NCBI GenBank assembly: GCA_000165345.1
Contig: CM000433.1
Span: 576,001 to 640,000, forward strand
Reading direction: 5' to 3'
Length of the DNA: 64,000 nucleotides
In this document: one piece after another, positions 17,272-54,019 of the stretch
How the letters are laid out: the number at the start of each line of letters is the position of its first letter
Numbering within the stretch: the first letter of the stretch is position 1
Made by a program: the position numbers and the translations under genes
The notes under the pieces: model-generated
Databases searched by the model: none
What the model saw: only the letters and a program-made list of their open reading frames with translations
Told to the model about the DNA's origin: nothing

Positions 17272-18279
17272 TTGAAAGAAATGAATTTGATAATAGGAAA
17301 GGGAAGAAAGCTTTCTTTGCATATTATGGTTTTGGCTTTAATCTTGGTAATTCAGTTAACTCAGTGTGTAAAATGCCTAGACATAACTAGATTAAACGCT
17401 CTTTTGCCAGGAGAGCGATATAATTTGTATACTTCGTTATCGAAAAAAAGAGCTTCATTCTTGGAATTATATTTAATTGAAGAGGAGAAGAATGATGAGG
17501 AAGGAGAACCAAAGGTTAAAGTAGAAACTGATTGTATGTTGAGCGTTTTACAATACAAATTGGTAGATTTATTGATAGGAGATCGTGAACTTAATCAGAA
17601 TTTTGATACAATTACAGCAAAAAAGTGTTTGAGAAAAAGTTTAAGTCAGTTGCAGAGCTTTTATGTACGATTTTTTGATTTAAAACTAATTTACAAACCA
17701 AACTGTTTTGAGAGAGCTTGTTTTAAGAAACCAGAGAAGGTTTTCTTTAAAAATTTGGAGAATCTTGCTCTATCTATGTATTTTTTTTTCACTGTAAATA
17801 ATTTAATAAAAGAAAAAGGTGGTTTTTCAAGAGAATTGGCTCTTCCACAGGAATTGGAACATAAAAATGAAGCAATTTCTGTTTTGAATAATGTCAATCA
17901 ACTTCATTCATATAAAGAAGGCTTAAAAGTTTGCATGAAATTTAATATGTTGGACATTATGTTATATCCAAGACTAAACAATAAGACTCTATTATCAGAA
18001 TTTAAGATTTTCTCTTCAATAGTACGTATTTTGACAGCTAATGTTGAAAAACATGTTCGTTTGTACAAATATAACAAAAATAATTTTGAAATAAATGGGA
18101 AAAAAAATTATAGCAAGAAGTTGATTTCAGATATTAAGAACATTAGGTCTTCAATGAAACTGCTTTCCTATGTAATTCTCACTAAATACTTTATCATTGC
18201 AGACATTTTTAATTTGGAAATATATGAACAGATTTACAATTCTATCATCAATACTAATACCACTTATAATGCATATTAA
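17272..18279 (+). CDS. hypothetical secreted protein (335 aa)
   Basis: The ORF has an N-terminal signal peptide, LSLHIMVLALILVIQLTQCVKC. An aataccggcatg motif at 17099-17114 lies upstream. Confidence 0.6.
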   Translation: MKEMNLIIGKGRKLSLHIMVLALILVIQLTQCVKCLDITRLNALLPGERYNLYTSLSKKRASFLELYLIEEEKNDEEGEPKVKVETDCMLSVLQYKLVDLLIGDRELNQNFDTITAKKCLRKSLSQLQSFYVRFFDLKLIYKPNCFERACFKKPEKVFFKNLENLALSMYFFFTVNNLIKEKGGFSRELALPQELEHKNEAISVLNNVNQLHSYKEGLKVCMKFNMLDIMLYPRLNNKTLLSEFKIFSSIVRILTANVEKHVRLYKYNKNNFEINGKKNYSKKLISDIKNIRSSMKLLSYVILTKYFIIADIFNLEIYEQIYNSIINTNTTYNAY

Positions 18280-18330: not shown

Positions 18331-18415
18331 AATTCCGGTAGTGAAATTCAGGAAATGGCGGGAAAAACATGCACAGTTATTTAACATAAATATATACTAT
18401 GCATGCATATGCGCA
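18331..18415. promoter_or_regulatory. orphan promoter-motif cluster (CCGGTAG, GGCGGGAAAAA, TGCATGCAT, GCGCAG) between convergent genes
   Basis: The cluster reads aattccggtagtg ... aaatggcgggaaaaacatgcac ... tatgcatgcatatgcgcag. It lies in the 3'-3' interval between the 17272(+) and 18601(-) genes. Confidence 0.4.
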
Positions 18416-18600: not shown

Positions 18601-19323
18601 TTATTCTTGTCTCTTTATTACCTTTTTAGTTAAGTAACAAAGAAGCAGAAGGTGCTTGACACTTTCGTGCATTGTAAGGAGGAGTAATTTTCCTGTATTA
18701 ATACATTCTAGAGCTTCAGAATGAGAGCAATGCGATGTATTTGCGATTATTCCATCTCTAATATTTACAATTTCTCTTCTTAAATCTTGGTCTTCAATAG
18801 ACCAATCCCAAGATCTTGCTAAAAGCATTTGAACTGTAATATCTTGAATATTAGCTAAATCAATTAATGAATAGTAATAGTATGCTCCTTGGTTTGCTAA
18901 AAGAAACTTATTTAATTGTTCATTCTCCAAATTTTTAACATAAACCTTTGGATAATTCAAAGCCACGATTTTTCTCTTAAATTCAGTTAAAAAAAGAAGT
19001 ATTGCAACTTTTAAAGTTTCTGTTGCCTCAAATATACTTAAATCTTTTCCTGATTCATTGTAGAAATCTTTCTGTTTCTCATCTGAAAGATCATCTTTAA
19101 GTTGTCTCAAGGTTTCTTCACTATAACATCTTTCTAGAACTTGACTATTCATTGATTCCAATATTATTTCTTCTTCATCTTTTATGTTATTGTTAATAGA
19201 TAGAGAATGAGCTTCTTCAAGGTGGAATTTTGCGTCTTTTTTTTTCACTACAACCACATCAAATTCACATAGACGACATGCTAGATAGTTTTGGATATTT
19301 TCAGTTAACTCTTTCTTCACCAT
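18601..19323 (-). CDS. hypothetical protein with an N-terminal U1/matrin-like C2H2 zinc finger (240 aa)
   Basis: The ORF is on the minus strand. It contains C-x2-C-x13-H-x4-H (CRLCEFDVVVVKKKDAKFHLEEAH). A TC-rich tract lies immediately 5' of its ATG. Confidence 0.6.
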   Translation of the reverse strand: MVKKELTENIQNYLACRLCEFDVVVVKKKDAKFHLEEAHSLSINNNIKDEEEIILESMNSQVLERCYSEETLRQLKDDLSDEKQKDFYNESGKDLSIFEATETLKVAILLFLTEFKRKIVALNYPKVYVKNLENEQLNKFLLANQGAYYYYSLIDLANIQDITVQMLLARSWDWSIEDQDLRREIVNIRDGIIANTSHCSHSEALECINTGKLLLLTMHESVKHLLLLCYLTKKVIKRQE

Positions 19324-23300: not shown

Positions 23301-26155
23301 ATGGTAATATTGTTAATAGTGGTACTATTAGTAGTAATAATAACAATAACAGTGATAAGAAGAATAAAAGTTCTTCTACTCCTATTAATACAATGGATGA
23401 TATCATTTATCCAACAAATCTGGAAGGTGTATTAGAAAAGATACTTGAAATTGAGCCTTTAGCTTTAAACTTTATTGTTTCTGGTCGTGGTTATAAATTT
23501 CTAAAGATGATTTTAAAGTCGAATTATTATCTTGGATATCACTTTTTAACAACTTTAGTAACTTTTTGGACAGGTGGTTCCAAATTCCGTCAACATTGTG
23601 ATATGCATCCAGGAAACATTCTTACAAGATTTCCCTCTAGTTGGAAAAAGTATAAATGGGAGAAATATTTAAAAAGTGTTTTAGATCACATAGATCAGAG
23701 ATACTTTTCTATTATTGATGTTGATTTTTCTTATGAAAGTGAAATGAAGATTACAAATTTGGAAGAAGATATTGAGAGACTTCCTGATAAGGACCCATGT
23801 AATCATCCTTCAGTAATAGAAAATAATAGTCAAGTATCTAGGAATGATTATGAGAGAATTATGTGTTTCTTTTGTGATTCTCATATGTCTCTTGAAACAT
23901 TTACTGAAGTAATTTCAAATTCTTATCCTTCCAAGACAGTATATTATGATCTTTCAACACATTATGAAGATATTATGAGAATTCACAATTATACAATGAA
24001 TTATTGTGAAAAAGCAAAGAAAATGATAAATGAATTAAAAGAGAGAGGGGAGGATGATCTTGCAACAGGGTTTAAGATGATCCAAAGCTTAAGAAAAGTG
24101 ATATGGAATTCAATTCTTGGACTTGATGGATTTGATACAGTTTCGGTTTCAGGTAATGAACTTGAAAACAATGATTTATTTAGTAGGTTTTTATTTTCAG
24201 GTTCAGGACCAAGTTTAGAATCTTGGTTATCATTACAAAAATCATCAGAATTAAAGAATAAGAAGGAATTAATAACAACAAGGAATTTAAGAAGAGGAGA
24301 TTCAATGATGGATAATGAGAACTCGTCTTTATATAATAATGATGATTTAAAGGAATCAGTTTTAGTAGAAAAGGGTCTTTCTTTACCGGTATTCCCAGAG
24401 AGAATAATGCCAGGAATGACTTCATCAATTCCAGAGCAGAGTTTAAGTTTTTACTGTATTGCAATATCAACAAGAAAGCTCTTAAACTCTCCATCATTAA
24501 AATTTACAGATCTTGTAAACTTTTTATTACAAAGATCATCATCTGAGGGATATATAAGAAAGATTCATTTTGGATCAAGTTTTGAAGAATTTGAATCAAC
24601 AAGAAGTAAATTAGAATCTGTGGAGCATTCAAAATTAGCATGTATGGAGAATTATGAAAATAAAAGGATTGTAATGGAAATGATACCATTAATATATTCA
24701 AAAGCTGATATGGTTTGTCCGAAAGATATTTGTACAAGTGTTAAACATTATGATATTTTTGAATCAATAGTATTAGTTTATAGATACCGTTTGAGTCATT
24801 TAATTTCAACAGCTTATCATTTGGGAGATACTTATAGTAATTTTGAAGACCAAATGTTAAGTATTAAAGTTTGGATGGTAGAGAGAAAGAATAAAATAGG
24901 TAAGAATGGTTTAGATTCAAGCATAGCAGAGAAGAAGTTATTGAAATTAAGTGAAGAACAGATAAATTCTATATTAGAGCTATATCACTTTTGTATAAGA
25001 GATAGGTTTTACAGTTCTTTATCTTATGGTCAATTAAAATGTAAAACAATACCAGAATTTGAAAAGTATGGAGAAGATTCGAATGGATTATTAATTTTGG
25101 AATTATCATCAATTTCTGATAGATCTTCAAGTAATATATTATTTCCATGGATTTACAATAGTGATTTTTCAATATTTGAATCAGAATTTTCATTTAAAGA
25201 TGTGAATGGTATTTCTGTGATTGGTATTGTAAGACCTTTTGAACAAGGAGAGGGAATAGAGAATAATAATATAAAGGAAAGAAAAGTGTTTATACATAAA
25301 GGAGGTAAATGCATTTACAATTATAATTCAAGAATAGATGAATATAAGGCTCCTCCAAGTATTACAAACAAGATTTCAGAAGGACATGAACATTTATACA
25401 GAAATAGTTTTATTGGATATGATAAGATGGAAATAAATAGTTTGACAGTTTTTACATTAGATGAAGGTAAAAGAATAAGTTTTTATTCTTGGGTTAAAGG
25501 AATAATGAATGCAAGTACAGGTTTTTTTCAAGAGAAAGATTTAGGATTGTCAGGAATGGGTTTTTCTTCAATAAAGAAGAATTATCAGATTGAGTTAATA
25601 ATTCTAGTTGGTTTTGTTGTGAAGACATTTAAGTCAATTTGGATTCCAAATCCAGAATGTAAGCATTATAGTAAGTTTAAGACTGTTTGTTTCCCAATGT
25701 TTTGTGGTCTGTCAAGCAAGAATATTATTTTAAATGTTGGTGATAACAGAAGAATTAGAGGGGTGAAGTTTTTATTTGGGCAAGATATTAAAGTAATAAA
25801 TGCATATAATGATGTTACAAGTTTAAATTCCGAAGGCTCAGGATTTCAGTTGAATAAAGAGAAATCAAAATCTGAGCTTGAGGAGTTAGTTAGTCTAAGC
25901 CATATTTTGCCACATTATTGTTTTGGCAATAATGATCAAGTTAATGATATGATAGCAGTTGCATCAACTTTAGAGTATTTAACTACAGTAATTGCTACAG
26001 ACGGTGCTTTGGACCCTTTAAAGTTATTTTCTTCAAATGTTGGCGATGTCTATTATAGGTACTTTAATATGACATTGGAGGAAATTTTAGGTCAAGTAAA
26101 TAGATTTTGCGATATATTGCAAGCTTATTCAGGGTCAAAGAGCCGTGTATGTTAG
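20312..26155 (+). CDS. large hypothetical secreted protein (1947 aa), Cys- and Asn-rich
   Basis: Uninterrupted 5.8 kb ORF. The signal peptide starts at the second Met, MNLSQSRCPFFLKAIIAFGFILQLSFCQ. It has poly-N/S insertions and I recognise no domain. Confidence 0.8.
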   Translation: MPQEEYFKMNLSQSRCPFFLKAIIAFGFILQLSFCQLASLNYRPERLEQPIIIRKALSKEICHLKELDEMSYYCEPLENTTNAAYLQIDCELISKKDSQFLILGDCDQSTNLNGDLASLNNCNKYLCDMESNPLNLLIVKVSGKTEYFHAIEHFKRNFRFKESTRSMKLSPIPVHVLYKKFQLFPDFTNKSTPWISPFYGKYLAYYIGSEEHIPTLDWVIQKFDNTVFKNFLELKDKYEIQDKENDIISTSETVYSISWLISTIIETYWTRGIDQQTIQQNQSFHTETSSFDTGLTYRTYCSLDFSSFIFNMKQYIDFAARTNNSPSYLTHEIKDISNENIKDIFLYSRIDLDSFYLNYSPNEISSDHSNLSNDELFNKPFPCNSKYKSIQKLKKTAFDDYSSNNVKKSLDSDLYKLSKTVNEDILVLVNIIYELISNYIIGIYKKNPILVESSERLQRYYKIYQKLFSRITEIKLEVDKVCGRKAFKIYSKNNDGKKTIISSSSNNSNNNNNNNNSTNDKNSTKSNKNKHSDLDEENICSLRYSMDVIKRLESIFFSIHENYRYVEQLRKNQLNSPEYLLRSTYCFSKALFESNYKDIPNETIIKTVLINSIIYKLKKSTSKSIKSECLKDLSSGDLSWLVDIESNSQICESYSNCIFNKESINQSVEIFTKLKEIDQEGGFHEKFALIKEMCIYSDKILGLSLARNKDTESNNIDSDLTNCQGFRLLQLTLRTSQLQQEVVGFKFRITLVDKIGNSYFIPDSSTVNYLLINDFCMDPEITPLIQCNFDWVAFQSLEELKKSSKKENYKRITNSIVLPDGYTIYTPLYFKETTDIDFISLSNGVLFGRILSSETNLNPKLRLTYFNGLPYPYHMNNEDLKRKICEKSPNKFTYNPEYSNPQKILVLKISYESSPISIIVDDEYFENKTLIRNSLIFKDKFSVIETPGLSIPLTPCIIQIESTLRSKSPCNSILFPYLMIQEFVNPLGIENNNGIINGNIVNSGTISSNNNNNSDKKNKSSSTPINTMDDIIYPTNLEGVLEKILEIEPLALNFIVSGRGYKFLKMILKSNYYLGYHFLTTLVTFWTGGSKFRQHCDMHPGNILTRFPSSWKKYKWEKYLKSVLDHIDQRYFSIIDVDFSYESEMKITNLEEDIERLPDKDPCNHPSVIENNSQVSRNDYERIMCFFCDSHMSLETFTEVISNSYPSKTVYYDLSTHYEDIMRIHNYTMNYCEKAKKMINELKERGEDDLATGFKMIQSLRKVIWNSILGLDGFDTVSVSGNELENNDLFSRFLFSGSGPSLESWLSLQKSSELKNKKELITTRNLRRGDSMMDNENSSLYNNDDLKESVLVEKGLSLPVFPERIMPGMTSSIPEQSLSFYCIAISTRKLLNSPSLKFTDLVNFLLQRSSSEGYIRKIHFGSSFEEFESTRSKLESVEHSKLACMENYENKRIVMEMIPLIYSKADMVCPKDICTSVKHYDIFESIVLVYRYRLSHLISTAYHLGDTYSNFEDQMLSIKVWMVERKNKIGKNGLDSSIAEKKLLKLSEEQINSILELYHFCIRDRFYSSLSYGQLKCKTIPEFEKYGEDSNGLLILELSSISDRSSSNILFPWIYNSDFSIFESEFSFKDVNGISVIGIVRPFEQGEGIENNNIKERKVFIHKGGKCIYNYNSRIDEYKAPPSITNKISEGHEHLYRNSFIGYDKMEINSLTVFTLDEGKRISFYSWVKGIMNASTGFFQEKDLGLSGMGFSSIKKNYQIELIILVGFVVKTFKSIWIPNPECKHYSKFKTVCFPMFCGLSSKNIILNVGDNRRIRGVKFLFGQDIKVINAYNDVTSLNSEGSGFQLNKEKSKSELEELVSLSHILPHYCFGNNDQVNDMIAVASTLEYLTTVIATDGALDPLKLFSSNVGDVYYRYFNMTLEEILGQVNRFCDILQAYSGSKSRVC

Positions 26156-26587
26156 TTTGTTGACGATTATGTTTTCTGAATAGAAATAGCCAATTATTTA
26201 ATTTTGCTTTGGTTTTAAATTGGGCGGGCATATTTTGGATTTGTTAATTTTCTTTAAATTTTTTAGAAATATATTGAATTTTGGAGGAGTTGGGAGGGAT
26301 AGATTTTGAATGTTTTGGTTGTTTGTAACGATATGGGATTAACTTTTATGTTTTTCTCTTTCTCTTAAGGTTTTAGGATTTTTAGAATACTAGAATTTAT
26401 GGAGTTTGAACTGTTGCAAATATTATTACCTGGCACTACAAGAAGAAAGTAGAGGGGGAAAACAAAAATGAATCTTCATGATATATGTCATTTTTCTAAT
26501 TTCTAGATTGAGAAAATTTACCGTTACTTTTTTAAATCCATTTTAAGTAATAATTTACATGGTATTTTCAATCTTGTAAAAATAGAC

Positions 26588-26602
26588 AGTTTGGCGCCAC
26601 AT
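26588..26602. promoter_or_regulatory. E2F-like box (agtttggcgccacat), with a second box at 26221 (tgggcgggca), upstream of the 26745 gene
   Basis: Motif reading. A (TA)n microsatellite at 26594-26620 is adjacent. Confidence 0.45.
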
Positions 26603-26744
26603 ATATATATATATATATATATATATTTTTTTTCATTAAGTATAATGCAAACTTGACAATATTAAGAAAGAGGTTAATACATGTATATATTATAAATATA
26701 TAAAAATATTTGCATATATATTTTCTTGAAAAAGAAAAGAAAGA

Positions 26745-28672
26745 ATGAAGTTAAACAAAAGTTCAATAATGACTTTTGCAATCATTATAGTTGTTCTGGT
26801 AAGTTAATATGGGATTAGAAAAGAAATCTTTTTTTTTTTTTTTTTTTAACAATTTGTTCATCAATGCATGCAAATTTAATTGCATGTAATTTCAAACAAA
26901 ATGTTCACAATGCCGGTATTGCATTAAATATATGGTGAAGATTAGATTTGCATGCACTGAAGAATATGTTTCAAAAAAAAAAAAAAAATATGAAAAATAT
27001 ATGACGTTAATTCCTTTCATTTCTTCTTTCTTTGTTTAAATAGGGAATAATAAGCAGAATAGTTGACTCAACAGTTTCAGAAAATGAATTAAGAGTAAGA
27101 AATATTGGAATTGAAAAGCGAAATAATTTGGAAAGTACTTTCATAAGTGAAAATGATGAAAACGCAAAGAAATATAATGAAGAATTAGAGCTGGAATTGG
27201 AGGCGTTTAAAGTGGCATCAGAACTCAGTACATCATTTATTAAAAAGATTCCTCAACAATTTAAAGATTTTTACAGAAAATCAGATGGAACAGCAGAAAG
27301 TATGTATAAGAATTGTATTTATGGATTCTTATTGTTAACTAAAAATGGAAAAGTTTCTCCAATTCTATATGTTAGAACATTAGTTTATAAGCTTGGAAAT
27401 AGGTATTATTTTGATTTAGGAGAAATTCAAGATGAGAAAGAAAGAGAAAATGCTAAACTTGTTAAACTACAAGTTGGACAAGCAATACACTTATTTTGTA
27501 TGAAAGGATCAAGCCTATTTTATTCCAGAGATGAAACAAAACCTTTAGATAGTAAGATTAAAAAAGAGTTGGCTAGATTAGAAGAACAGGAGCAGGAACA
27601 AGAACAAGAACAAGAACTAGGGCAAGAACATCAAGAAAGGTTAGATGATAATATTAAAGAAAGACCAGAAATGGTGGAAATAATGTTATATTTGACAGAA
27701 TTGCTGGATAGTGAGATTTTAAGTGTTGAGATTGATAAAGCAATGATGAATGGAAGAAGAAAAGAAATAAAGGATATTTGGAAGATTGGAAAAGAAAGAA
27801 GATTAGATCAAGAAAAAATTAACGAGTATAAGAATATGGTCAAATTGATTCGAATTCCCCTTCCAGAATCACGACTTAGAGATAGATATGGCCAAATACA
27901 TCATCCTGATTCAGAAAATAAACTTGGAGTCCCAACAAGAATCCAAAAAGAAAGTGATAAAATAAAATCAAAATTGAATCAAATTAAAAGAGATGAGAAC
28001 ATTCTTATGGGAGTAGGTAATGAGAGATTTGTTGATTATGAGAGAAGAAAGTATTTAGAAGCAGCTTTAAAGAGAAATCAAAAACTTAGTTTTGAGAAAA
28101 ATAAACAAATAATTTCAGATAGGAGAAATGAGGATAAACAAGACGAAGAATCCAGATTAAAATGCGAATGTGAAGAAGAAGAATGTGAATGTAGGATTGT
28201 TGGTCTTTATGGAGAGGTTTTAGGTAAGCCTGTATCAATAAAACTTGAAGAGGAACTTTTTAATGATCATCAAATTTTTGGAAACAAAAATAAGAACCGA
28301 AAAAATGAAATCAAGCATTTTAAAGGATTAATAACTGGAACAAGAGAAGAAAACAGAAAGTATAAAGGTAATAATGAATATCAAGATAATTCTACCGGCT
28401 CAAATTTGAGAAGAAAGTTACATGTTCCAAATAGTTACATTGAGATTCCTCTTAGAGGTTTATCTAAACTTCAATTATTAACACTTGAGCAACTTTCTGG
28501 GATTGATATTAATACAAGAAGCTCAACACAATTTTTACCAAGAATTAAGAAAATTAATCATGAAAAAAACATTAAAGTATCAGAATCAGTACCTATTAAT
28601 GAAGATGATAAAGGTTCTTCTATAAAGAAACCAAAAAGTATTTTACATAATAGAAACAGAAACTATATTTAA
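26745..28672 (+). CDS. hypothetical secreted, charged/coiled-coil protein; predicted two-exon gene join(26745..26798,27044..28672)
   Basis: Exon 1 (MKLNKSSIMTFAIIIVVL) is a signal-peptide start that ends exactly at a GTAAGT donor. The AAATAG acceptor at 27041-43 puts exon 2 (GIISRIVDST...) in frame with the long ORF 27128-28672, which itself lacks an ATG. That ORF contains an EQEQEQEQEQE tract and is K/E/R-rich. If the intron call is wrong, the CDS is 27128-28672 only. Confidence 0.5.
26799..27043 (+). other. predicted 245-nt intron containing TGCATGCA / TGCCGGTATTGCAT motifs
   Basis: It has GTAAGT at the 5' end and TTTAAATAG at the 3' end, and it contains T18 and A16 homopolymers. It also contains aatgcatgcaaatttaattgcatgtaat, aatgccggtattgcatt and ttgcatgcac. 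Confidence 0.45.
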
Positions 28673-29231
28673 CTAACTTAAATAAAGAAGCAAAACCTCA
28701 TCAATTTTGACTTGAATAACGATATTTATAAGTTTCTAGAAGATCAGCATAATTTATGTTAAATCTTTCAATAAGTTCTAATATTAATATTAATTTTATA
28801 TTTCAAAGCTAAAATCAACCTTGGATGATTTTTTTTTTTTTCAAAATCTCTATTTAGAATCAAGGCAGATAATTATTTACACTAAAATGAATCATTTTCA
28901 CAAACAATCATTTTGAAATAAATAAAGTAAGGATAATTAATTGATCACTTTTTTTTAAAAAAATATATATATTAATATTTAATTCATTTCCTTCATTTTA
29001 TCATAAATGATCATTTAAATTGAATTAACAAATAAAATAATCAAGAAAGATCATTTTCTTTATCGATTTATCTCGAGATTTCTTTTTATTCAATTGACAA
29101 ATATTAAATATTGATCAAATTTATTCAAATTATTGTTTTAACACGTTTAAATGAATTTTATTACGTGTCTATCATTATTTATTTATTATCTAAGGAACTG
29201 CATGTAATTTATTATTTTTTCTGCTTGTGCA

Positions 29232-29245
29232 GTTGGCGGGAAATC
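29232..29245. promoter_or_regulatory. E2F-like box (gttggcgggaaatc) 155 bp upstream of the 29401 gene
   Basis: Motif reading. Confidence 0.45.
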
Positions 29246-30939: not shown

Positions 30940-31747
30940 TTTAAACTGACCTTTTGATTTTGTCAGCATATTAGAAATGTATATTTTTTTTTTATTATTT
31001 TTGTATTTCTAATAAGTCTACGAACTCCAAACTAATTCTTGTAATTAAATGAGTGTTAATTAGATAATTAAATAAATGTTCTGGAAATAAATTTAATATT
31101 AATGCAATATTTATTCATCTTCAAATAATTTCTTTTCCACATGAAAAAAAGTGTATGCATGCAAATACCGGTATTGAAGTTGATAATATTAGTAATTTTT
31201 TTCCACATAAAATTACTAAATACAGTTAATTACATGCAATCACCACTTGCAATAATCAGAAAGCAAAACATTTTTTCTCTTTAATTTATATAAGGAATTA
31301 ATAACAAAAGGGTTTTCGCAAGGAATATATTATAAAAAAATGTTAGATTTTAATTATATAATTATAAGAGGATTCCCATTGGTTCTGCTTGCTCAAAGTT
31401 TTTATTCAAATTAAAGTAAGATAAAATTACGAGTTTTCAATATATGCGGACTAATGGATGAAAGAGTAAATTATACAAGCTTTTATCAGTAAATTTCAGT
31501 TAAGCCGTAATTAGATAATTCAAAGTGGGTTATAATACAAAATCAATACTAGCGAATAATCCGCAAATTCAATTGCTATTAAATTGATAAACAGCTTATG
31601 TTCAACTAATAATAGCAAGACATAACAAAGAGTGGTTAATAATATTTTATGAATAATAAAGAAATTCTATCGACAAAATATATTAATAATACAATTGTGA
31701 GCTTAATAAAATATACATTTTTTAATAAATCAGATAATGTATGATAA

Positions 31748-46030: not shown

Positions 46031-47110
46031 AATTATATTAGTTTATATTGGTCTTATCAAATATTATTCAGAGCAAATCTCTTTAAAATAGATCTGAGTT
46101 AATGTTTTATTTCATTCTACTTTTTTTTAACAATACTTTCTTTAAATATTAATAATATATTACATACAATACACATGCACTTTTTGGCGCCAACAAAACT
46201 ATAGATCTTGGACGCCATTTAATTGTAAAAAACTTTAAAGGAGCATAGAGTAAGCTAAACAAATATTTTGGTCACAAGTTCGTTTATTCTTTTAATTTTT
46301 TCTATTTTTTCCCCTTCTTTAGTGAGTTTTTACATTGAAGGTAGTTTCAAATGCAATAAAAAACTATTTAAGAGCTAGTTCTTATAGCAATAAAAGTATA
46401 GATGAGAGAGAAAAAAATGATAGATTATATTTTATATATGTTTAATTCATAGAAACATTAAAATTGGTAATCAAGATGAATTTTTTTTTTTAAATATATT
46501 CTTCATTTCCCAGAATATTAATTTAAATTTTGCATGCATTTATTAGTGGCGCCAAATGTATTTGATTGTAGTTATAAGTAAGGCAGGTAGTTTTGTGGGG
46601 GGGGGAGCGCGCGACTTAGGGGAGGAGGGGAAAAAGAATTTATGAGCTATATATTTACAGGCGAGAAATAAATAAGGTGCCAAAGTAAAGCAGAAATAAG
46701 TAATAAGTTTCAATAAAAGTGTCTATGTAAGGAAGAGAATCTGGTTTCAAATATTAAAGAAAATTCCAAAACATTGAACTAAGAGCTTCTTTGGAATTAA
46801 TTAAGAATAAATAATTGCGTGTGCAATTTTGCATGCAATTATTTTGGCAAATTATTTATTAATTAGCATATTATGTGGATAATATGACAATAGTAATTAG
46901 CTAAAAAGTGTGGGAGCTGAATTAATTCAAGAAATCATACAATTCGAAGTTTCTGAAATAAATTTAATAATCTAGTGACTAAAATAAAGAGAGAATGGAA
47001 CTTTGAATTAAGGACTAACGAATTTTACACAATAACAGTATCAACTGCAAACATAACAACATTATCTACTACTCTAATAATATTAATATTATTAAGTAAA
47101 TAAAACAAAA

Positions 47111-50100
47111 ATGTTTAGATATTGTAGTAAAATCACCGAAAGAGTGTTATACTCTACTATAAAGAATGTTATGAATAAGATATTCACAAATTTTGAACAA
47201 GAGCAACTTTCCATCTCACTTTTAGGTGGAAGCTTGGAAATAAGGGATTTAAATATTAGAAAAGAACTTTTTGATGATTTATCTTTCCCAATCAGTTTAA
47301 GTGATGGAATTGTTGGAAAAGTTAATATTGATGTTATCTGGAGAAAAATATTTACCCAAGAGTTTGTGAAAATCACCTTGGATGATGTATATGTTATTTT
47401 TAATACTACTGATATGAAAAATTGGAATGTTGAAATGTTTGAAAAAAACTGGAAAAGGGTTAAAGCTAATCTATTAAAACAAGATGAATTTATTACTTTC
47501 TTAAAAAGTGCTATGGCTTCCAATTTTCTCAAACAAATTGGACACTTTTTTATATCAAAGATTCAGTTTGAAATTAAAAACATCAATTTTAGAATTGAAA
47601 ATTTGTTATTCCACTATATGAAGAGATTTGTTATTGGACTAAGTATTGATAAAATTTCCAGTCGAAATTGTAATGAATATTGGATTCCAGTAGATAAATC
47701 TGGAGGAGCCATTTTAGGCCGTAATACAGACAAAATTAATGGATCATCAACTTCAAATATAGCTTTTGATAATAATGATATAAGAAATTCAAAAGCATCA
47801 GGTAACTCTAATAACCATATATCATCACAGTCTATACCCAGAGAATTCTATCTAGATGAACAAGATGAAACTAGTATTGGATCTATTGTAGACAAATATA
47901 TGAAATTTATGGAGCCTAAATTAAAAATTAATAAAGGTTTTACTGGAGATTCTGAAGAAAATCTAGACAATATTGATGATATGAAAGAACAGGAGGATAT
48001 TTTAAAAAGTATTCTAGCAAAATCTAAATCCAAGATTAATGGAAATAAATCTATAGAAACTCATAATTTTTGGTCAAAGCTTAAAAAAAAGACTCCTCTT
48101 AGTTGGGTATGGAATAACCAAATTTACGATCAAAAATCTGAATCTTCAAAAAATCCTAATATTGAAGAGAAACAAATTGAGATAGACAATACAGAACTCA
48201 ATAGTGGGATATGGCATAACAATGATCTAATTTTTCCCTACCCTAATGGAATGGGAGTCAATAGAGAAGTCATTGATAACTTTATCACATCCAAGGAAAA
48301 CAGAGAAATAGAAAAATACAATAAGGAAAAGTTTGTCCAACCTGATATTCTGGAAAAAAATGAAATCTTCCTCAAATCTTTCTTAATAGAGAACTTTTCT
48401 GTATATATTGATGAGATCTCACTTTATAACAAAACTATTAACTCTCCTTGGACCAATTTAAATAAATCAGAATCACAAATCTCTGATAGATTAAAATTCT
48501 TAAAAATTACTTCTGAAAAAGAATACGATACCCATGATTTTATTATTTATCCACATAAAATTGAATTAAGAGTAAGATTGGTACCTTGCATTATAAGATA
48601 TGATGAGAATATATATGCATCAGCTTTGAATGATAGGTTTTATATTCTATCTCAGGATGAAGATAACCAGATTATTCCATTAATATCATCTTATTTTATT
48701 TTTGATAATTTAAGTATTGATATCACAGAAAAACAATTAAAGTTATTGTTAGATTTTTTGGACTATACAGTATTTTTATATGGAGATTTTTCAGCAGGTT
48801 CATGTCCAAAGGATTTTCAGAACTTTCCAGATGAACAATCATGTATTAGGTATAGAATTTCATGGTTTGAGTTTCTTATAGGAAAAAGAGACAGAAGTTA
48901 CTCAGAAATTTGCAATATTGAAGACAGTTATAATGCTTATTCTTTAATAAAGCTCAGAAATGATGTTTATAAGTGTCTTAATTATTCAATATATCATTCA
49001 GTAAAGTCAATACTTAGCTTTGAACTAGATAAAAGTGATCAAGGAAATGTTTTAACTTTTCCTCTATTTGTAATCAAAGATCATGAAGAATGTAATTCAA
49101 GAGATAATCCTTTTGGAGGATTTCCAAACAAAAATAAGCCAGTATTGGTTAATGAATCTGATAAAATCAGTAATAATCTGGCTCAGTATATTATTTCTAA
49201 ATTAGTTATAGGACAGAATGATTATTACTCTGTAAGTTTGAATATGAATGATGATTCAACTGTTGGAGGAGGAAAAAAGGCAAATATTAATAATGAGATA
49301 AAGGAAACAGAAATCTATTTAAGTAAGGAGGAAATTCAATTAATTAAAGAGAATGATTTACTTGAAAGGATCAAAACAAAAACAAGCAGTTTGTTATCAC
49401 AGAATGAGTTACCTTTTGAGGTGGTAACTTTTGATCTGAATTCATACTTGAAAACTGAAAAGGATAATAATAACAAGAAATCTCATCATACTTCACCATT
49501 TATGCTAATACTGAATGCTCAAAACTTAACAATTAACTATTCGATCAATCTGAATGATCATAATCCATATTCTAAAAATAAGAAGAGCTTAAGATTTAAT
49601 TGTCTAGACTTGTATATACAATATAAGCTATTTACTGAATCAAAAAAGTTAGAGACGACAATAGCAGCAGAAAATTGTTATATGGTTGTTCACGATAACA
49701 AGGAAATAGGGAAAAATTTAATAAACAATTCAAATTGTTTACTTAGGATTGGACCAAATATCCAAAACTCAAAAGATTCTGACAAAGAAACTTTTAAACA
49801 ATTAACAAATCATCCAATATTACATAGATCAAGTATATATACCGGTACTACAATATGCAATAAAAGGCCTTATATGATGTTTACTGGAAATCAACGAAAT
49901 ATGAAGATTTACGAACCTTGTGATAAAATTGGAGGATTCTGGATAACTATTAGACTAAATAAAAATCCTTTCAGAACTACCCCAAAAGTGAATGTTTATG
50001 GAAAAACTTATGGTGAAATTTCCATTGTTGGATCATATGATGTATTTGAAAGGTTCTTAGATCCAATAGTTAATCATTTAAGCCCAAAACAAAGAAATAA

Positions 50101-53100
50101 TTACTTGAATAAAGCAAATAAGAATTTTGTTAAAGTAATTAAGAAAGGACAGAAATATATGACGGAGTTCTTCAATAATGGAGGAGCCTTTTCTAGTTTT
50201 TCTTATATGCCATGTCCCAACTATATATATTTAAATATAGATGCCAAAGCAAAACAGCTTTTGTTCTTTCCTATTCTAAAGAAGGATTCTAATAGCGAAT
50301 TATTGGAAAAATCTGATCGGAATGAAGCTTTTACAACTTTAAAAGAAAGACCAAATTCAATATTAAAATCAGCTGTTGATATGTTTTCAAGCATGATGGA
50401 ATATAAAATCAACAAAATTTCGAATTACTCTAGCATGTACTGTATTGATTGTGGTGAGATGCTTATTGAAACTTTCCAAAAGAATCCAAACAAGAAATTA
50501 GACAATTCTGGAGATAAATTCTTTACTGATAATATCAAGATAAGCTTTTCTAATATATCTCTATCGTTTATGAGACAGGTTAGATTAGTTGATCTTTATA
50601 TTTATAGAGATCTTGAAATGAAGGACAGAGGTACCGGCAATAATTTTCAAGATCCATGGGAAAAATTACAGGATTATGCTGTGAGATGTATACTAAAACC
50701 TCAAAGTTGGACATTTTCAGTTTACAAGTATAGAAGTAACTCAATAATTAATAAGAATAGTAGTATTAGACAATTTCTGGTAAATTTGGAGTTTTCTTTA
50801 AATTTAGCTCAAGATACGAGCGTGGAAATCAATACCACAGATATGGATCTTCACAATATTGCAGAAATTGTTAACTATTTTGTTAGCTTTTATTCTCAAT
50901 ACAATTTTATTAACTATTCTCAAGTTCTTATTAGTAATGTCGAAGAAGCGAATTCTATAAAAGGAAGAGAAAATTTTGATGAAAATACAAGATCTAGTGA
51001 TCAAAGCTGCTCAATTTCAAGCTTAGATTCTATGGAATCAATTATTGCAAACTCTAAATCAAAGACTAATAATGTTGAATTTCTAAAGAATATTGAGTTT
51101 ATATTTACAATACCAGAAACACATATTATTATTAAATCTGATAATGCTTATAGAGAAAGACAGGGAATGGCAATTAAAGATTTACCTGTGGTCAAGCTAA
51201 ATATCTCCTCAATCAAGGTATTTGTTTTGAATGGAGATCAAGATAGATCAGGAGTTTATGTATCTATTGCGGATGTATGTTTATCAGGAGGGATCTTGAA
51301 CAGAAATAGTAGGCTTTTAGTGCCTTTGTTTTGTCCAATTTCTGATACATTTTGCAATTTGAGTATTAAATTTTCTGATTTAAGCAATATTGACCGGTAT
51401 AAGGATTTTACAGGTATTTTATTGAATAACTCTAATATGAATATTCAAATTAATAACCCCAGATTCATTGTGTATTGGGATCTTTATGGAATTATTCTAA
51501 ATTGGATTATCACATTTTACTTTAAATCTATTGCAGTTCACCTTGAACGAAAAATAGATATCGACAAGATCAAACCAATTCTAGGTAAATGTAGTAATGA
51601 AGATATTCATAATCAAGATCAAAGGTATAATGAACAAGAATCTTTATTGGATAATGAAAATGAAGGAGCAATAGCGACTGAAAATCAATGTATTAGAAGC
51701 CAAATCATTCAGTTTCTTTCTATAATTAACCTCAAAATTCACTTTAAAGATGCTATTGCTATTCTCCCTTGCACACTTTCTGATCCAATTCAAGTAGTGA
51801 TCACAGAAATTGAGCCTTCATCATCTTCCAATTCAGCAGCTTCTTCATCAGCAGCATCTTCTGCTTCTGGACAAACTCAAACAAATTCTGGAACAGGATT
51901 TTCAGGAACTGGAACTTCCACTATTCCAACATTTTCAGCTTTTAAAGTTGATATTTTAAAATCTCTTTTAGCTGTAGTAAGATGTGATCTTACATACAGA
52001 TTTACTGGAGAATCTATATTTGAAATTGAGAACAAAAAAAATTCTCATAGTAAGCTAAAAAGCAATACAATAAAGAGTACTTTTGAACTATTTAAGGGAA
52101 GTATTCAATTTGGAAGGTCTCTGACTCCTAGGCATATTATGGAGTCTTTATGGAAGATCTCAAGAAGTCATAATATAGGAGGAAGGCATGGATTAATGAC
52201 TAGTGGAATTGGTATTTCAAGGATTGGTAGCGTTGGAGTAACCAATAATACCAATATTACACAAAATAAGATTGAAAATGTATCATCAATTGGAGGAAAG
52301 AATACAAATTTATTAACAACTCCCTCAAATGTAAATATTTCAAATACAAATTATGGCTCTGGAGGTATTGGAATAGGAGGAGGAGGAGGAGGAGTAGGAG
52401 TAGGAGTAGTAACAGGAGCTGGCCACTTCCAAAAGTCTACAGGTGAATCGAATATCACAAATTTGGTAAAGTCTTTTTATTTACCTAGAACTGATCAGGC
52501 TTTGAAAAGTTTGGTGGAAATTGAGAACTTGATAAATTCATATCAATGGCAATTCAATTTTGATATAGGATCTGGAGATGAAAAGAAAATTGTATCATCT
52601 TTAAGATTTAAGCTTGACTATATAATGAATCAATTGGAGATTAAGTCTGAAATGAGTAATGTAATCATGCTTTATGGATTTCTGGAGACAATAGAAATTA
52701 AGATGAACACAAATGAGCTTTTACATTTGATTAATGTAGTTGATATGTATTACAATTTAATTCAAAGTAATTTATTTGTGGACCTTTCCAATCAAAATAA
52801 CCAATTTGGAGGTGGTGGAGGAAGAGGATTTGATAACCAAGATACAATGTTAGATATTCAAAGTGATAATGGTTCCTCAAGATACAATATTGGATATAGT
52901 TACCAAGCAAATAGTAATTCTATGGGAAATAATGTCTCAATGATGAATTACTTGGTTTACTTATTTCCTTCAATTTTCCATACAACAATTACAAACTATA
53001 ACAAATTCATCTCACAGTTCAAATTAGAGGGATTGAAGATTCATTATATCCCAACAAATCTGACTTCCAATAAAGATGGAGTGCTTATAGATGTAACAGA

Positions 53101-54019
53101 GACTCAACTTGGTATTTATGTTAATGATGATGCTCCAGATAATGATTTCTTATTTAAAATCTTTCCTTTTTTATCAATATTTAATGAAGGATCTAAAAGA
53201 ATAATGGATGAATTTGAGATCAAAGACAAACTTATAATGATCCCAAGATTCTCAATAAGTAGTATCCCAATTTTACCAATTCTAACAAAATCCAAAGATA
53301 TTTTTTTTGGATTAATATTAGAATTCAAAAAAATATCAGTTTCAATATTTAATAATCAACTGATGTTTTATGACAATATTTTAGAACCTTTTGATGTAAG
53401 CTTATTATCAATATGCATGGGTAGTGATTCTAAAGCAAAAAAGTTATCAATAGAAAAATTGAATCCAAAAGTGAATATGGAGATTACTTGGATTAATTTG
53501 ACAATGACTCCAGAATATGTGAAATATTGGCTAAATTGCTTGGATAACTTTAATGAAGTTTATACAAATTATTATTTGAGACTTAATAATATAAATAAAC
53601 TTCTTTCTAGAAGAGTATTTCCTTATAACAATACTCTTGGAATTCTTTTACATGATCTTGAAAGTAAGATCATTGAAGAAGGTAAAGAAATAGAGGAAAA
53701 ATTTAAAGGTCTTTATTCAAGACCATTATCTGGAGAATGGGATGACCATGTATATAATTTTAATAATTCAAATAACAGTAAGCAAATAACAAGTGGTTTA
53801 GGAGAAAATTTGAGTAGCTCAAATTTTGTATTATATAATGATACAGGACAAATATTGGCCGTATTAATTCCATTATTTCTAGATGATAGTAAGAAAATGA
53901 AAGGTGGAGAGATAATTGAAACAAGAAACTTAGTTGATAATAATACAAATCAATTAAATTGCCAAGAATTACAAAACNAAGAANGANTAATTNNNANTCN
54001 ANATAGATNTGATAATTAA
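47111..54019 (+). CDS. VPS13: VPS13-like bridge-like lipid-transfer protein, N-terminal part with the chorein-N domain (2302 aa; truncated by a sequence-ambiguity region)
   Basis: The N-terminus, VMNKIFTNFEQEQLSISLLGGSLEIRDLNIRKELFDDLSFPISLSDGIVGKVNIDVIWRKIFTQEFVKITLDDVYVIF, matches chorein-N. Compare yeast Vps13, [38 protein letters not shown]...PVRVTIEDVYLLA. The ORF terminates inside the N-containing stretch 53978-54009, so the stop is not trustworthy. Confidence 0.85.
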   Translation: MFRYCSKITERVLYSTIKNVMNKIFTNFEQEQLSISLLGGSLEIRDLNIRKELFDDLSFPISLSDGIVGKVNIDVIWRKIFTQEFVKITLDDVYVIFNTTDMKNWNVEMFEKNWKRVKANLLKQDEFITFLKSAMASNFLKQIGHFFISKIQFEIKNINFRIENLLFHYMKRFVIGLSIDKISSRNCNEYWIPVDKSGGAILGRNTDKINGSSTSNIAFDNNDIRNSKASGNSNNHISSQSIPREFYLDEQDETSIGSIVDKYMKFMEPKLKINKGFTGDSEENLDNIDDMKEQEDILKSILAKSKSKINGNKSIETHNFWSKLKKKTPLSWVWNNQIYDQKSESSKNPNIEEKQIEIDNTELNSGIWHNNDLIFPYPNGMGVNREVIDNFITSKENREIEKYNKEKFVQPDILEKNEIFLKSFLIENFSVYIDEISLYNKTINSPWTNLNKSESQISDRLKFLKITSEKEYDTHDFIIYPHKIELRVRLVPCIIRYDENIYASALNDRFYILSQDEDNQIIPLISSYFIFDNLSIDITEKQLKLLLDFLDYTVFLYGDFSAGSCPKDFQNFPDEQSCIRYRISWFEFLIGKRDRSYSEICNIEDSYNAYSLIKLRNDVYKCLNYSIYHSVKSILSFELDKSDQGNVLTFPLFVIKDHEECNSRDNPFGGFPNKNKPVLVNESDKISNNLAQYIISKLVIGQNDYYSVSLNMNDDSTVGGGKKANINNEIKETEIYLSKEEIQLIKENDLLERIKTKTSSLLSQNELPFEVVTFDLNSYLKTEKDNNNKKSHHTSPFMLILNAQNLTINYSINLNDHNPYSKNKKSLRFNCLDLYIQYKLFTESKKLETTIAAENCYMVVHDNKEIGKNLINNSNCLLRIGPNIQNSKDSDKETFKQLTNHPILHRSSIYTGTTICNKRPYMMFTGNQRNMKIYEPCDKIGGFWITIRLNKNPFRTTPKVNVYGKTYGEISIVGSYDVFERFLDPIVNHLSPKQRNNYLNKANKNFVKVIKKGQKYMTEFFNNGGAFSSFSYMPCPNYIYLNIDAKAKQLLFFPILKKDSNSELLEKSDRNEAFTTLKERPNSILKSAVDMFSSMMEYKINKISNYSSMYCIDCGEMLIETFQKNPNKKLDNSGDKFFTDNIKISFSNISLSFMRQVRLVDLYIYRDLEMKDRGTGNNFQDPWEKLQDYAVRCILKPQSWTFSVYKYRSNSIINKNSSIRQFLVNLEFSLNLAQDTSVEINTTDMDLHNIAEIVNYFVSFYSQYNFINYSQVLISNVEEANSIKGRENFDENTRSSDQSCSISSLDSMESIIANSKSKTNNVEFLKNIEFIFTIPETHIIIKSDNAYRERQGMAIKDLPVVKLNISSIKVFVLNGDQDRSGVYVSIADVCLSGGILNRNSRLLVPLFCPISDTFCNLSIKFSDLSNIDRYKDFTGILLNNSNMNIQINNPRFIVYWDLYGIILNWIITFYFKSIAVHLERKIDIDKIKPILGKCSNEDIHNQDQRYNEQESLLDNENEGAIATENQCIRSQIIQFLSIINLKIHFKDAIAILPCTLSDPIQVVITEIEPSSSSNSAASSSAASSASGQTQTNSGTGFSGTGTSTIPTFSAFKVDILKSLLAVVRCDLTYRFTGESIFEIENKKNSHSKLKSNTIKSTFELFKGSIQFGRSLTPRHIMESLWKISRSHNIGGRHGLMTSGIGISRIGSVGVTNNTNITQNKIENVSSIGGKNTNLLTTPSNVNISNTNYGSGGIGIGGGGGGVGVGVVTGAGHFQKSTGESNITNLVKSFYLPRTDQALKSLVEIENLINSYQWQFNFDIGSGDEKKIVSSLRFKLDYIMNQLEIKSEMSNVIMLYGFLETIEIKMNTNELLHLINVVDMYYNLIQSNLFVDLSNQNNQFGGGGGRGFDNQDTMLDIQSDNGSSRYNIGYSYQANSNSMGNNVSMMNYLVYLFPSIFHTTITNYNKFISQFKLEGLKIHYIPTNLTSNKDGVLIDVTETQLGIYVNDDAPDNDFLFKIFPFLSIFNEGSKRIMDEFEIKDKLIMIPRFSISSIPILPILTKSKDIFFGLILEFKKISVSIFNNQLMFYDNILEPFDVSLLSICMGSDSKAKKLSIEKLNPKVNMEITWINLTMTPEYVKYWLNCLDNFNEVYTNYYLRLNNINKLLSRRVFPYNNTLGILLHDLESKIIEEGKEIEEKFKGLYSRPLSGEWDDHVYNFNNSNNSKQITSGLGENLSSSNFVLYNDTGQILAVLIPLFLDDSKKMKGGEIIETRNLVDNNTNQLNCQELQNXEXXIXXXXRXDN

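Follow-up and report, generated by a model that had tools for sequence, protein, structure and literature searches.

Gene structure of cgd5_2730

The DNA analysed here, called the window below, is a stretch of 64,000 nucleotides of C. parvum IOWA-ATCC chromosome 5, and the gene under study is cgd5_2730 / CPATCC_0024550. Judged from its reading frames and its orthologues, this is a two-exon gene (Table 1) that occupies CP044418.1:624558–626485 on the deposited chromosome, with the intron at 624612–624856. A sequence-only reading of the window had placed exon 1, the GTAAGT donor at 26799 and a phase-0 intron of 245 nt ending in AAATAG exactly where we find them. The same reading had started the long ORF of exon 2 at 27128. 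The end of that ORF was correct but its start was not, since the frame is open from 27044, in phase 0 and just 3′ of an in-frame TAG, and 27128 is a TTG taken from a bacterial-style ORF list. It had also stated that the ORF has no ATG of its own, which is imprecise, as M105 is in frame and was the start used in the 2004 annotation, giving a protein of 456 aa.

Table 1. Features of the cgd5_2730 locus, in positions of the window.
Feature	Position	Strand	Remarks
E2F-like GGCGCC site (tttGGCGCCa)	26593..26598	+	upstream intergenic, about 150 nt 5′ of the ATG
Exon 1	26745..26798	+	18 codons, MKLNKSSIMTFAIIIVVL; deposited model identical
Intron	26799..27043	+	phase-0 GT-AG, 245 nt; GTAAGT, polypyrimidine tract, AAATAG
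T19 tract	26829..26847	+	no longer homopolymer in the window; borders the motif cluster on its 5′ side
AP2_1 site a	26865..26872	.	palindromic TGCATGCA
AP2_1 half-site b	26881..26886	.	TGCATG, 16 nt after site a
CCGGTAT companion motif	26913..26919	.	followed by a TGCAT core at 26920–26924
AP2_1 site c	26949..26956	.	TGCATGCA; with its flanks an inverted repeat of site a at 18/20 positions
A16 tract	26973..26988	+	3′ flank of the motif cluster
Exon 2	27044..28672	+	residues 19–560 and stop codon; uncharacterised Cryptosporidium-specific protein
Internal ATG (M105)	27302..27304	+	first in-frame ATG of exon 2; start in the superseded 2004 model

The intron has a GTAAGT donor and a pyrimidine tract and closes with ttcctttcatttcttctttctttgtttaaatAG at 27043, and its removal leaves one open frame that matches the orthologues. 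The spliced model equals the deposited model (560 aa) for both C. parvum IOWA-ATCC and BGF; the protein is identical to QOY41706.1, WKS77928.1 and WRK32419.1, and the gene span also matches. RNA-seq support has been described for all introns of the IOWA-ATCC annotation (Baptista et al., 2022; PMC8744675). These data bear out the earlier proposal of a signal peptide encoded across an intron. The gene model is already in current annotations, hence it is not new and nothing changes in the annotation. We found no match to a 30-mer across the spliced junction in JGI metagenome contigs, which is uninformative on splicing. Logan assemblies gave no copy of the spliced protein that derives from a transcript; in them the protein occurred only on genome-length contigs and its members were 513–514-aa genomic ORF calls.

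Introns are absent from about 90% of Cryptosporidium genes and those of C. parvum have a mean length of 99 nt (PMC4637869), so that the intron of cgd5_2730 is about 2.5 times the mean. The 2015 re-annotation of C. parvum lists 688 introns and the IOWA-ATCC annotation 1370. Among the 16 window genes with a readable IOWA-ATCC gene range, cgd5_2730 is the sole gene that contains an intron.

Exon 1 codes for the basic n-region of a signal peptide or signal anchor and for the greater part of its hydrophobic core. The first 30 or so residues of all nine orthologues have a basic n-region followed by a hydrophobic h-region, with one to four K/R among the first six residues; the highest Kyte–Doolittle mean over 11 residues is 1.8–3.5. 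The uncharged stretch of 17 residues in the C. parvum protein could be either a signal peptide or a signal anchor, and the product is predicted to be a secreted-type protein that is uncharacterised. No Pfam family and no proteomic record were found for it, and its AlphaFold model is of low confidence (mean pLDDT 48). Its dN/dS against C. hominis is 0.39 (Isaza et al., 2015; PMC4637869). The gene has no entry in the expression-cluster supplementary tables of PMC3734150 or in the secreted-protein localisation study PMC13241007.

Residues 19–104, which run from the acceptor to the first internal ATG, hold a block conserved across the genus (ELELEAF..SELSTS..P..F..Y..S.G), and there is no in-frame ATG 5′ of this block. 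M105 itself is invariant in nine species. The sequence-only reading had offered as a fallback that exon 1 is a uORF and that the gene starts inside. This reading was rejected, and M105 as the start with it: the donor is in phase and the N-terminus stays hydrophobic in nine species, coding conservation extends to the acceptor, and no ATG precedes M105. The conserved protein block 5′ of M105 thus rules out a uORF.

Promoter-type motifs in the intron

The AP2_1 family of C. parvum is an upstream motif, 5′-TGCATGCA-3′ / BGCATGCAH, to which the AP2 domains of cgd2_3490, cgd1_3520, cgd8_3230 and cgd5_4250 bind in vitro (PMC3734150, PMC4117751). Two full octamers (sites a and c) and one half-site (b) in the cgd5_2730 intron match this motif, and the four intron strings quoted in the sequence-only reading are exact (26865–26875, 26880–26890, 26911–26924 and 26948–26957). 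The sites exceed chance and are conserved in orthologous DNA. Their location departs from that of the family, since they are 120–205 nt 3′ of the ATG at 26745 rather than 5′ of a regulated start codon.

In the window as a whole, TGCATGCA was observed 13 times against 0.54 expected, and 12 of the 13 copies are non-coding. The 245-nt intron alone has two octamers versus 0.02 expected (p = 0.0004, dinucleotide shuffles). CCGGTA is likewise in excess (20 observed, 2.3 expected), and six of its nine non-coding loci are within 50 nt of a TGCATG half-site (p = 0.0004). The composite of TGCATGCA, CCGGTA and poly(dA:dT) tracts recurs in the intergenic regions of the window, where AP2_1 modules sit 117–1073 nt 5′ of start codons. 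This agrees with the earlier suggestion that the intron carries the same module as the intergenic promoters, and within the intron the module is phylogenetically footprinted. Several intergenic modules are accompanied by the strand-specific ATGTGGACA. This element is missing from the intronic cluster, which is therefore not a full copy of them. A more far-reaching and rather unlikely reading is that TGCATGCA, TACCGGTA and ATGTGGACA form an undescribed composite promoter grammar of Cryptosporidium.

The GGCGCC site 5′ of exon 1 is of the E2F-like motif family described in PMC3734150 and presumably belongs to the main promoter. A GGCGCC/GGCGGG site is found 47–165 nt 5′ of the ATG in each of the seven species that span C. 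felis to C. parvum, and the intergenic DNA upstream of the C. bovis gene has a GGCGCC site too. The upstream region is without GCATGC in five of the seven motif-bearing species.

Conservation of the intron and its motifs

The signal-peptide exon is present in nine Cryptosporidium species. The intron is at the same place in all nine with donor, phase and acceptor conserved; eight of them share the donor GTAAGT, and C. serpentis has GTACGT. In seven species a single GT-AG solution reproduces the deposited protein. The length of the intron is 67 nt in C. serpentis, 160 nt in C. bovis and 226–449 nt in the clade from C. felis to C. parvum. The two short introns, those of C. bovis and C. serpentis, lack the TGCATGCA cluster.

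The introns of C. ubiquitum, C. canis and C. felis no longer align to that of C. parvum, and identity at fourfold-degenerate sites at this divergence is 0.23–0.25, that is, saturated. Despite these saturated neutral sites none of the seven species between C. felis and C. parvum has lost the TGCATGCA cluster. At the position of site a all seven have a GCATGC core, which is part of a full octamer in six and of CGCATGCA in C. canis, and a second site follows 15–25 nt past the first in each. C. meleagridis, C. ubiquitum and C. felis also have a third site (c). C. hominis and chipmunk genotype I have it in degenerate form, as TGCGTGCA and TACATGCA respectively, which indicates that not all copies are constrained. 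The CCGGTAT companion is conserved in C. parvum, C. hominis, chipmunk genotype I, C. ubiquitum and C. canis and reads GACGGTAT in C. meleagridis. A pyrimidine tract occupies the place of T19 in all seven motif-bearing introns, and C. ubiquitum, C. canis and C. felis have purine-rich tracts at the place of A16.

TGCATG/CATGCA is enriched in each of the seven introns from C. felis to C. parvum (p ≤ 0.006 each, dinucleotide shuffles), and the enrichment is strongest, at p ≤ 0.0002 each, in the non-aligning introns of C. ubiquitum, C. canis and C. felis. The orientation of the half-site varies, being TGCATG in C. parvum and C. felis and CATGCA in C. ubiquitum and chipmunk genotype I. We also compared GCATGC counts in the intron with those in the remainder of the roughly 6-kb locus. 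There were two copies in the 285-nt intron of C. felis versus one in 5606 nt elsewhere, two in 288 nt versus two in 5579 nt in C. canis, and two in 449 nt versus one in 5666 nt in C. ubiquitum. In chipmunk genotype I, intron identity (0.78; core 0.87) is above that of fourfold sites (0.67) and of the upstream intergenic region (0.64). Because a cluster of TGCATGCA, the best-known promoter motif of the parasite, has been kept in seven species, the intron probably acts as regulatory DNA inside the gene.

A putative intronic enhancer

On balance we lean towards a lineage-specific regulatory module that binds ApiAP2 factors, acts at the level of DNA inside an ancient intron and serves as a putative enhancer of the upstream promoter. 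The 54-nt first exon supplies the start codon and the core of the signal peptide, and the phase-0 intron was already there in the last ancestor shared by the Cryptosporidium species sampled. On this view, before the clade from C. felis to C. parvum diversified, the intron grew from roughly 70–160 nt to 226–449 nt and gained the TGCAT(GCA) cluster of ApiAP2 sites, the CCGGTAT companion and the flanking poly(dT)/poly(dA) tracts. We infer that the cluster works as double-stranded DNA and is bound by ApiAP2 factors about 120–210 bp 3′ of the start codon. Bound factors would modulate transcription from the promoter 5′ of exon 1, probably in a stage-specific manner, so that the module would be a promoter-proximal intronic enhancer and the upstream promoter the one marked by the conserved E2F-type site. 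Whether factors bind, the direction of their effect and the choice of the upstream rather than an intronic start site as the target are the parts of this proposal that we deduce, whereas the gene structure, the motifs with their statistical excess and conservation, and their distribution over the species are observed. Action at the DNA level is suggested by the retention of full palindromic octamers and by half-sites in both orientations. As for factors that recognise the motif, TGCAT(GCA) is bound in vitro, in protein-binding microarrays, by four AP2 domains of C. parvum (PMC4117751), and in T. gondii AP2XII-8 occupies this motif in vivo and acts as an activator of genes (PMC11358496).

Alternatively, the module may start transcription within the intron, giving an isoform that begins at M105 and has no signal peptide, or a sense or antisense regulatory ncRNA. 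The intron module might thus be a second, stage-specific promoter yielding a transcript without the signal-peptide exon. Its make-up of poly-dT, AP2_1 sites and poly-dA is like that of the intergenic modules, its distance from M105 (353–437 nt) is inside the range seen for those modules, M105 is both invariant and the start of the 2004 model, and the var intron of P. falciparum offers a reported precedent (PMC5513710). However, several short ATG ORFs that are out of frame or terminated separate the module from M105, which would make translation from M105 inefficient, and a product started there would lack the conserved block at residues 60–104. The module is also without the E2F and ATGTGGACA elements seen near other gene starts, and the lncRNA supplement of PMC7840661 does not mention cgd5_2730. 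We consider initiation inside the intron unlikely, and an enhancer for the upstream E2F-marked promoter the more likely role. Were the intron a promoter, one gene would encode both a secreted and a non-secreted form of the protein, or else give rise to a regulatory RNA. Regulatory models of Cryptosporidium take account of just the short intergenic DNA 5′ of genes. The broader notion that the genus houses regulatory DNA in introns too, here as a module gained in one lineage within an ancient signal-peptide intron, seems to us quite unlikely.

It is improbable, in our view, that the UGCAUG(CA) copies act in the pre-mRNA, be it as sites for splicing regulators or by pairing with one another, or that the intron hosts a small ncRNA. 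In the pairing variant a hairpin would in effect bring the two ends of this unusually long intron, with their splice sites, closer together. The C. parvum intron does fold into a long hairpin in which T19 pairs with A16 and site a with site c (18/20), with an MFE of −50.1 kcal/mol (z = −3.3; −2.8 in independent shuffles). Within the C. parvum group the hairpin has z = −2.1 to −5.8, which leaves some room for a role at the RNA level; there are a few compensatory changes among the five AT-rich species, and 23 intronic small ncRNAs have been reported in C. parvum (PMC9465071). Yet in C. ubiquitum (z = −0.5), C. canis (−0.3) and C. felis (−1.7), where the motifs are conserved, the fold is no better than that of shuffled sequences, and the hairpin or "zipper" was downgraded on this basis. 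The C. canis sites are just 12 nt apart, half-sites occur in both orientations, and the motif is a proven DNA-binding site enriched in intergenic DNA. A scan of 26100–27400 gave nothing at the Rfam gathering score (best E = 0.06, 25 bits versus 55), and the sub-threshold matches are mostly miRNA-like hairpins caused by the inverted repeat. The intron as an RNA gene was rejected because all of these matches fall below threshold, and it has no structure conserved across the clade.

An absence of function, with the cluster a neutral remnant of a palindromic or foldback insertion that chanced to carry TGCATGCA (or, relatedly, with exon 1 as a uORF), is already disfavoured and highly improbable. 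In its favour, a long and imperfect inverted repeat between T and A tracts makes up the centre of the C. parvum intron, and C. bovis and C. serpentis manage without the motifs. Against it, three lineages with introns that do not align have kept the motifs although divergence is saturated, and the chipmunk genotype I intron is better conserved than its neutral and upstream comparators.

Comparison with known systems

The intronic enhancer that we favour would be an instance of a known element type, and what is new is, as far as its motif content indicates, a conserved intronic AP2_1 cluster. As in the AP2_1 family, the sites are identical, palindromic, clustered, strongly enriched in non-coding DNA and accompanied by promoter-type features. 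All AP2_1 sites described earlier were defined, using old gene models, as upstream of genes and their start codons, which makes a position inside the transcription unit and 3′ of the ATG atypical; by those models the intron itself would have been classed as "upstream" DNA, with M105 as the start. The CCGGTAT companion is not among the 25 published motifs (PMC3734150).

Motif surveys in Cryptosporidium that scan only upstream of start codons can thus miss or misplace regulatory DNA. Because introns are few, CRISPR is available and C. bovis and C. serpentis are natural controls that have the intron without the motifs, the locus offers a clean test of whether an ApiAP2 site works 3′ of a start codon. 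A further question that it touches is whether carrying regulatory sites is part of the reason why some introns survive in a genome that lost most of them.

Apicomplexan two-exon genes for secreted proteins, such as those for Plasmodium exported proteins, have the signal peptide on a short first exon. The cgd5_2730 gene resembles them in its short hydrophobic exon, one intron and long second exon, but here the layout is found in a genus where it is uncommon.

According to PMC5513710 and the work cited there, the var intron of P. falciparum is active as a promoter, gives rise to lncRNA and interacts with the promoter upstream, although the title of that paper describes the var2csa intron as dispensable. 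Both are apicomplexan introns between the two exons of a gene for a surface or secreted protein and have conserved DNA that is regulatory or, in cgd5_2730, probably so. The var intron differs in being about 1 kb long and otherwise organised in sequence, and in belonging to a multigene family with mutually exclusive expression. By contrast, cgd5_2730 is single-copy, its motif is a general ApiAP2 site and any promoter activity of its intron is putative.

In eukaryotes generally, enhancers in first introns and intron-mediated enhancement are known. We found no description of first-intron enhancement in Cryptosporidium, and a 2025 review of gene regulation in the genus makes no mention of introns. 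Like first-intron enhancers elsewhere, cgd5_2730 has its predicted transcription-factor sites in the first intron, near the promoter.

Gene structure and annotation of cgd5_2730

The window is eukaryotic with 25–30% G+C and was identical base for base to C. parvum IOWA-ATCC chromosome 5 (CP044418.1) across the 45 kb compared, window position 1 lying at about 597814 of that record. The gene concerned is cgd5_2730, also listed as CPATCC_0024550 and cpbgf_5002730. On checking the sequence, the ATG, 18-codon exon, donor, 245-nt intron and in-phase second exon of the sequence-only reading all had correct coordinates, and each of its four intronic motif strings was found in place. It had also described a long ORF starting at 27128 with no ATG of its own. 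The spliced frame is indeed in phase, but it is open from the start of exon 2, 27128 being merely the first TTG chosen by a bacterial-style ORF list, and it contains an in-frame ATG at M105.

Features of the cgd5_2730 locus and related motifs in the window
Feature	Position	Strand	Remarks
Exon 1	26745-26798	+	ATG at 26745; 18 codons, MKLNKSSIMTFAIIIVVL
Intron	26799-27043	+	245 nt; 5' GTAAGT, 3' AAATAG
Exon 2	from 27044	+	phase 0; in-frame TAG immediately before
M105	27302	+	in-frame ATG internal to exon 2 frame
CCGGTA, non-coding	2877, 4082, 8330, 17102, 18335, 26913, 31166, 41544, 62324		window scan
CCGGTA, coding	24384, 49840, 54814		window scan
ATGTGGACA	2837, 8294, 9851, 54801	+	adjoins TGCATGCA/CCGGTA modules
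ATGTGGATA	46873	+	adjoins TGCATGCA/CCGGTA module
Convergent-gene module	18335-18407		CCGGTA, GGCGGG, CATGCA, TGCATGCA
Convergent gene	17281-18279	+	flanks module
Convergent gene	18601-19323	-	flanks module
TGCATG–GGCGGG pair	29199-29240		upstream of cgd5_2740
TGCATGCAaaTACCGGTA	31156-31173		tightest composite version
aCATGCATGCccATGTGGACAtcaaTACCGGTAtTGCATGCAgg	54790-54830		complete promoter-type module, in frame in giant ORF 47111-62108
Eleven scattered N characters	53978-54134		inside giant gene

The identical 560-aa spliced protein is already on record for three assemblies of C. parvum. In the first annotation, of 2004 (EAK87995 / XP_626209), the protein begins at M105 and has 456 aa. CP044418.1 annotates the gene over 1928 nt (54 + 245 + 1629), and RNA-seq support is reported for every intron of the IOWA-ATCC annotation (Baptista et al., 2022; PMC8744675). 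A 30-mer across the exon junction had no match among metagenome contigs, as expected. Deposited proteins, gene span and a nine-species comparison agree in supporting the proposed splice and predicted signal peptide, which are already annotated. Among the 16 genes with a readable IOWA-ATCC range, only cgd5_2730 has a span exceeding its coding length, consistent with the approximately 11% of C. parvum genes that bear introns (PMC4637869); for the genes beyond about 38.6 kb, the comparison drew on Logan-contig ORF calls alone, which do not register introns. With 245 nt against a C. parvum average of 99 nt (PMC4637869), this intron is of unusual length.

The protein is Cryptosporidium-specific and uncharacterised. 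The spliced sequence matched only Cryptosporidium proteins and had no Pfam match, and its predicted model is mostly helical at low confidence (mean pLDDT 48). The dN/dS against C. hominis is 0.39.

Conservation of the intron and its motifs

The deposited proteins of seven species (C. parvum, C. hominis, C. meleagridis, chipmunk genotype I, C. ubiquitum, C. canis and C. felis) are each reproduced by one GT-AG intron, in all seven in phase 0 after codon 18 or 19, with a GTAAGT donor and a length of 226–449 nt. Orthologues in C. bovis and C. serpentis, located via the syntenic neighbour cgd5_2740, have a short hydrophobic first exon followed by a phase-0 intron of 160 and 67 nt, respectively. All nine N-termini combine a basic start with a hydrophobic core.

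All seven longer introns carry one or two TGCATGCA octamers plus extra half-sites, and five also carry CCGGTAT. Motifs were enriched over each intron's own dinucleotide shuffles (p ≤ 0.006 in each), most strongly in C. ubiquitum, C. canis and C. felis (each p ≤ 0.0002). The introns of C. canis and C. felis do not align to that of C. parvum, and fourfold sites in these two species are saturated relative to C. parvum (identity 0.23–0.25); G+C is about 51% at these loci and 53–58% in the introns. Each nevertheless holds two GCATGC, versus one or two in the other 5.6 kb of its locus. In chipmunk genotype I, intron identity (0.78; core 0.87) exceeds that of fourfold sites (0.67). The intronic motif cluster is genuine, exceeds chance expectation and is under selection. 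The upstream intergenic regions lack GCATGC in five of the seven species, and all seven have an E2F-like GGCGCC/GGCGGG site 47–165 nt before the ATG.

The shorter C. bovis and C. serpentis introns contain no TGCATG; the C. bovis intron (locus L012, 5631-5790) has a GCACACACACA run instead. Its aTGCACACACACAat sequence matches AP2_2 / CACACA, a motif to which four other AP2 domains of C. parvum bind; this could be a site for another factor or no more than a microsatellite. Most parsimoniously, the intron is old, and it lengthened and acquired the module in the common ancestor of the C. felis to C. parvum clade.

Related modules in the window

Among apicomplexan cis-elements, the AP2_1 motif, TGCATGCA, is the best documented. 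Four C. parvum AP2 domains bind the motif or its TGCAT core in protein-binding microarrays (PMC3734150, PMC4117751), and in vivo it is engaged by AP2XII-8 of T. gondii. It occurs 13 times in the window (0.54 expected), 12 of them non-coding. CCGGTA, often as the full palindrome TACCGGTA, occurs 20 times against 2.3 expected, about a 9-fold excess, and at six of the nine non-coding loci a TGCATG half-site is no more than 50 nt away (p = 0.0004). The 25 upstream motifs published for C. parvum do not include it, and searching full texts for TACCGGTA with Cryptosporidium returned only an unrelated oomycete (Plasmopara) paper; CCGGTA may represent a partner site of AP2_1 that has not been described before. 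Only ten homopolymer tracts of at least 12 nt occur in the window, all non-coding, and two of the longest, T19 and A16, bracket the intronic cluster. Because of this motif excess, pairing and flanking tracts, the intron resembles the intergenic promoter modules, found elsewhere 117–1073 nt upstream of start codons, as the sequence-only reading had proposed. It is without the ATGTGGACA element of several of these. ATGTGGAYA occurs eight times (1.3 expected), and four of five ATGTGGACA/ATGTGGATA copies lie 238–539 nt upstream of + strand genes, the fifth (54801) being inside the giant ORF; the element looks like a strand-specific third component.

Upstream of cgd5_2740, named as a WYLE-family secreted protein, a TGCATG half-site precedes GGCGGG by about 36 nt, roughly 165–200 nt before the ATG. 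The spacing is identical in all seven species (downstream intergenic regions of orthologous loci L001-L007), and the pair is a second clear phylogenetic footprint. TGCATGCAaaTACCGGTA lies 217 nt past the cgd5_2740 stop, with the next start codon 1073 nt further on; at 1290 nt, this intergenic region is unusually long. The convergent-gene module lies between two 3' ends, so no annotated gene has it upstream of its start; it might drive a transcript that is non-coding or missing from the annotation. For aCATGCATGCccATGTGGACAtcaaTACCGGTAtTGCATGCAgg, the options are an internal promoter, an in-frame intron missed by annotation, or coding sequence with three chance motifs. The giant gene appears as two ORFs (47096-54016 and 53991-62105) because of its N characters, and is one continuous ORF of >3000 aa in a Logan contig.

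Possible modes of action

We consider it slightly more likely than not that ApiAP2 factors would bind the intronic cluster, about 120–210 bp downstream of the ATG, and would act on the E2F-marked promoter 5' of exon 1. A promoter inside the intron, of the kind reported for P. falciparum var genes (PMC5513710), seems unlikely here, as a transcript started there would run through several short ORFs on the way to M105 and its product would lack residues 60–104, a block of protein that is conserved across the genus. Action as RNA is more doubtful still. The C. parvum intron is predicted to fold into a long hairpin in which T19 pairs with A16 and AP2_1 site a with site c at 18 of 20 positions (z = -3.3; -2.8 with independent shuffles), and close relatives also fold (z = -2.1 to -5.8). 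However, C. ubiquitum (z = -0.5), C. canis (-0.3) and C. felis (-1.7) keep the motifs with no hairpin, half-sites occur in both orientations with the full palindrome as the conserved unit, and no Rfam family reached threshold; a function as double-stranded DNA is therefore favoured. The fallback that exon 1 is a uORF and the gene starts inside is ruled out, since the conserved block lies N-terminal of M105 and no in-frame ATG precedes M105 in exon 2.

We found no description of this cluster in the literature searched, and a 2025 review of Cryptosporidium gene regulation leaves introns unmentioned. The var intron is a parallel for the internal-promoter reading; judged from its sequence, the cgd5_2730 cluster appears to be a further instance of the intronic regulatory module, an already known type of element.
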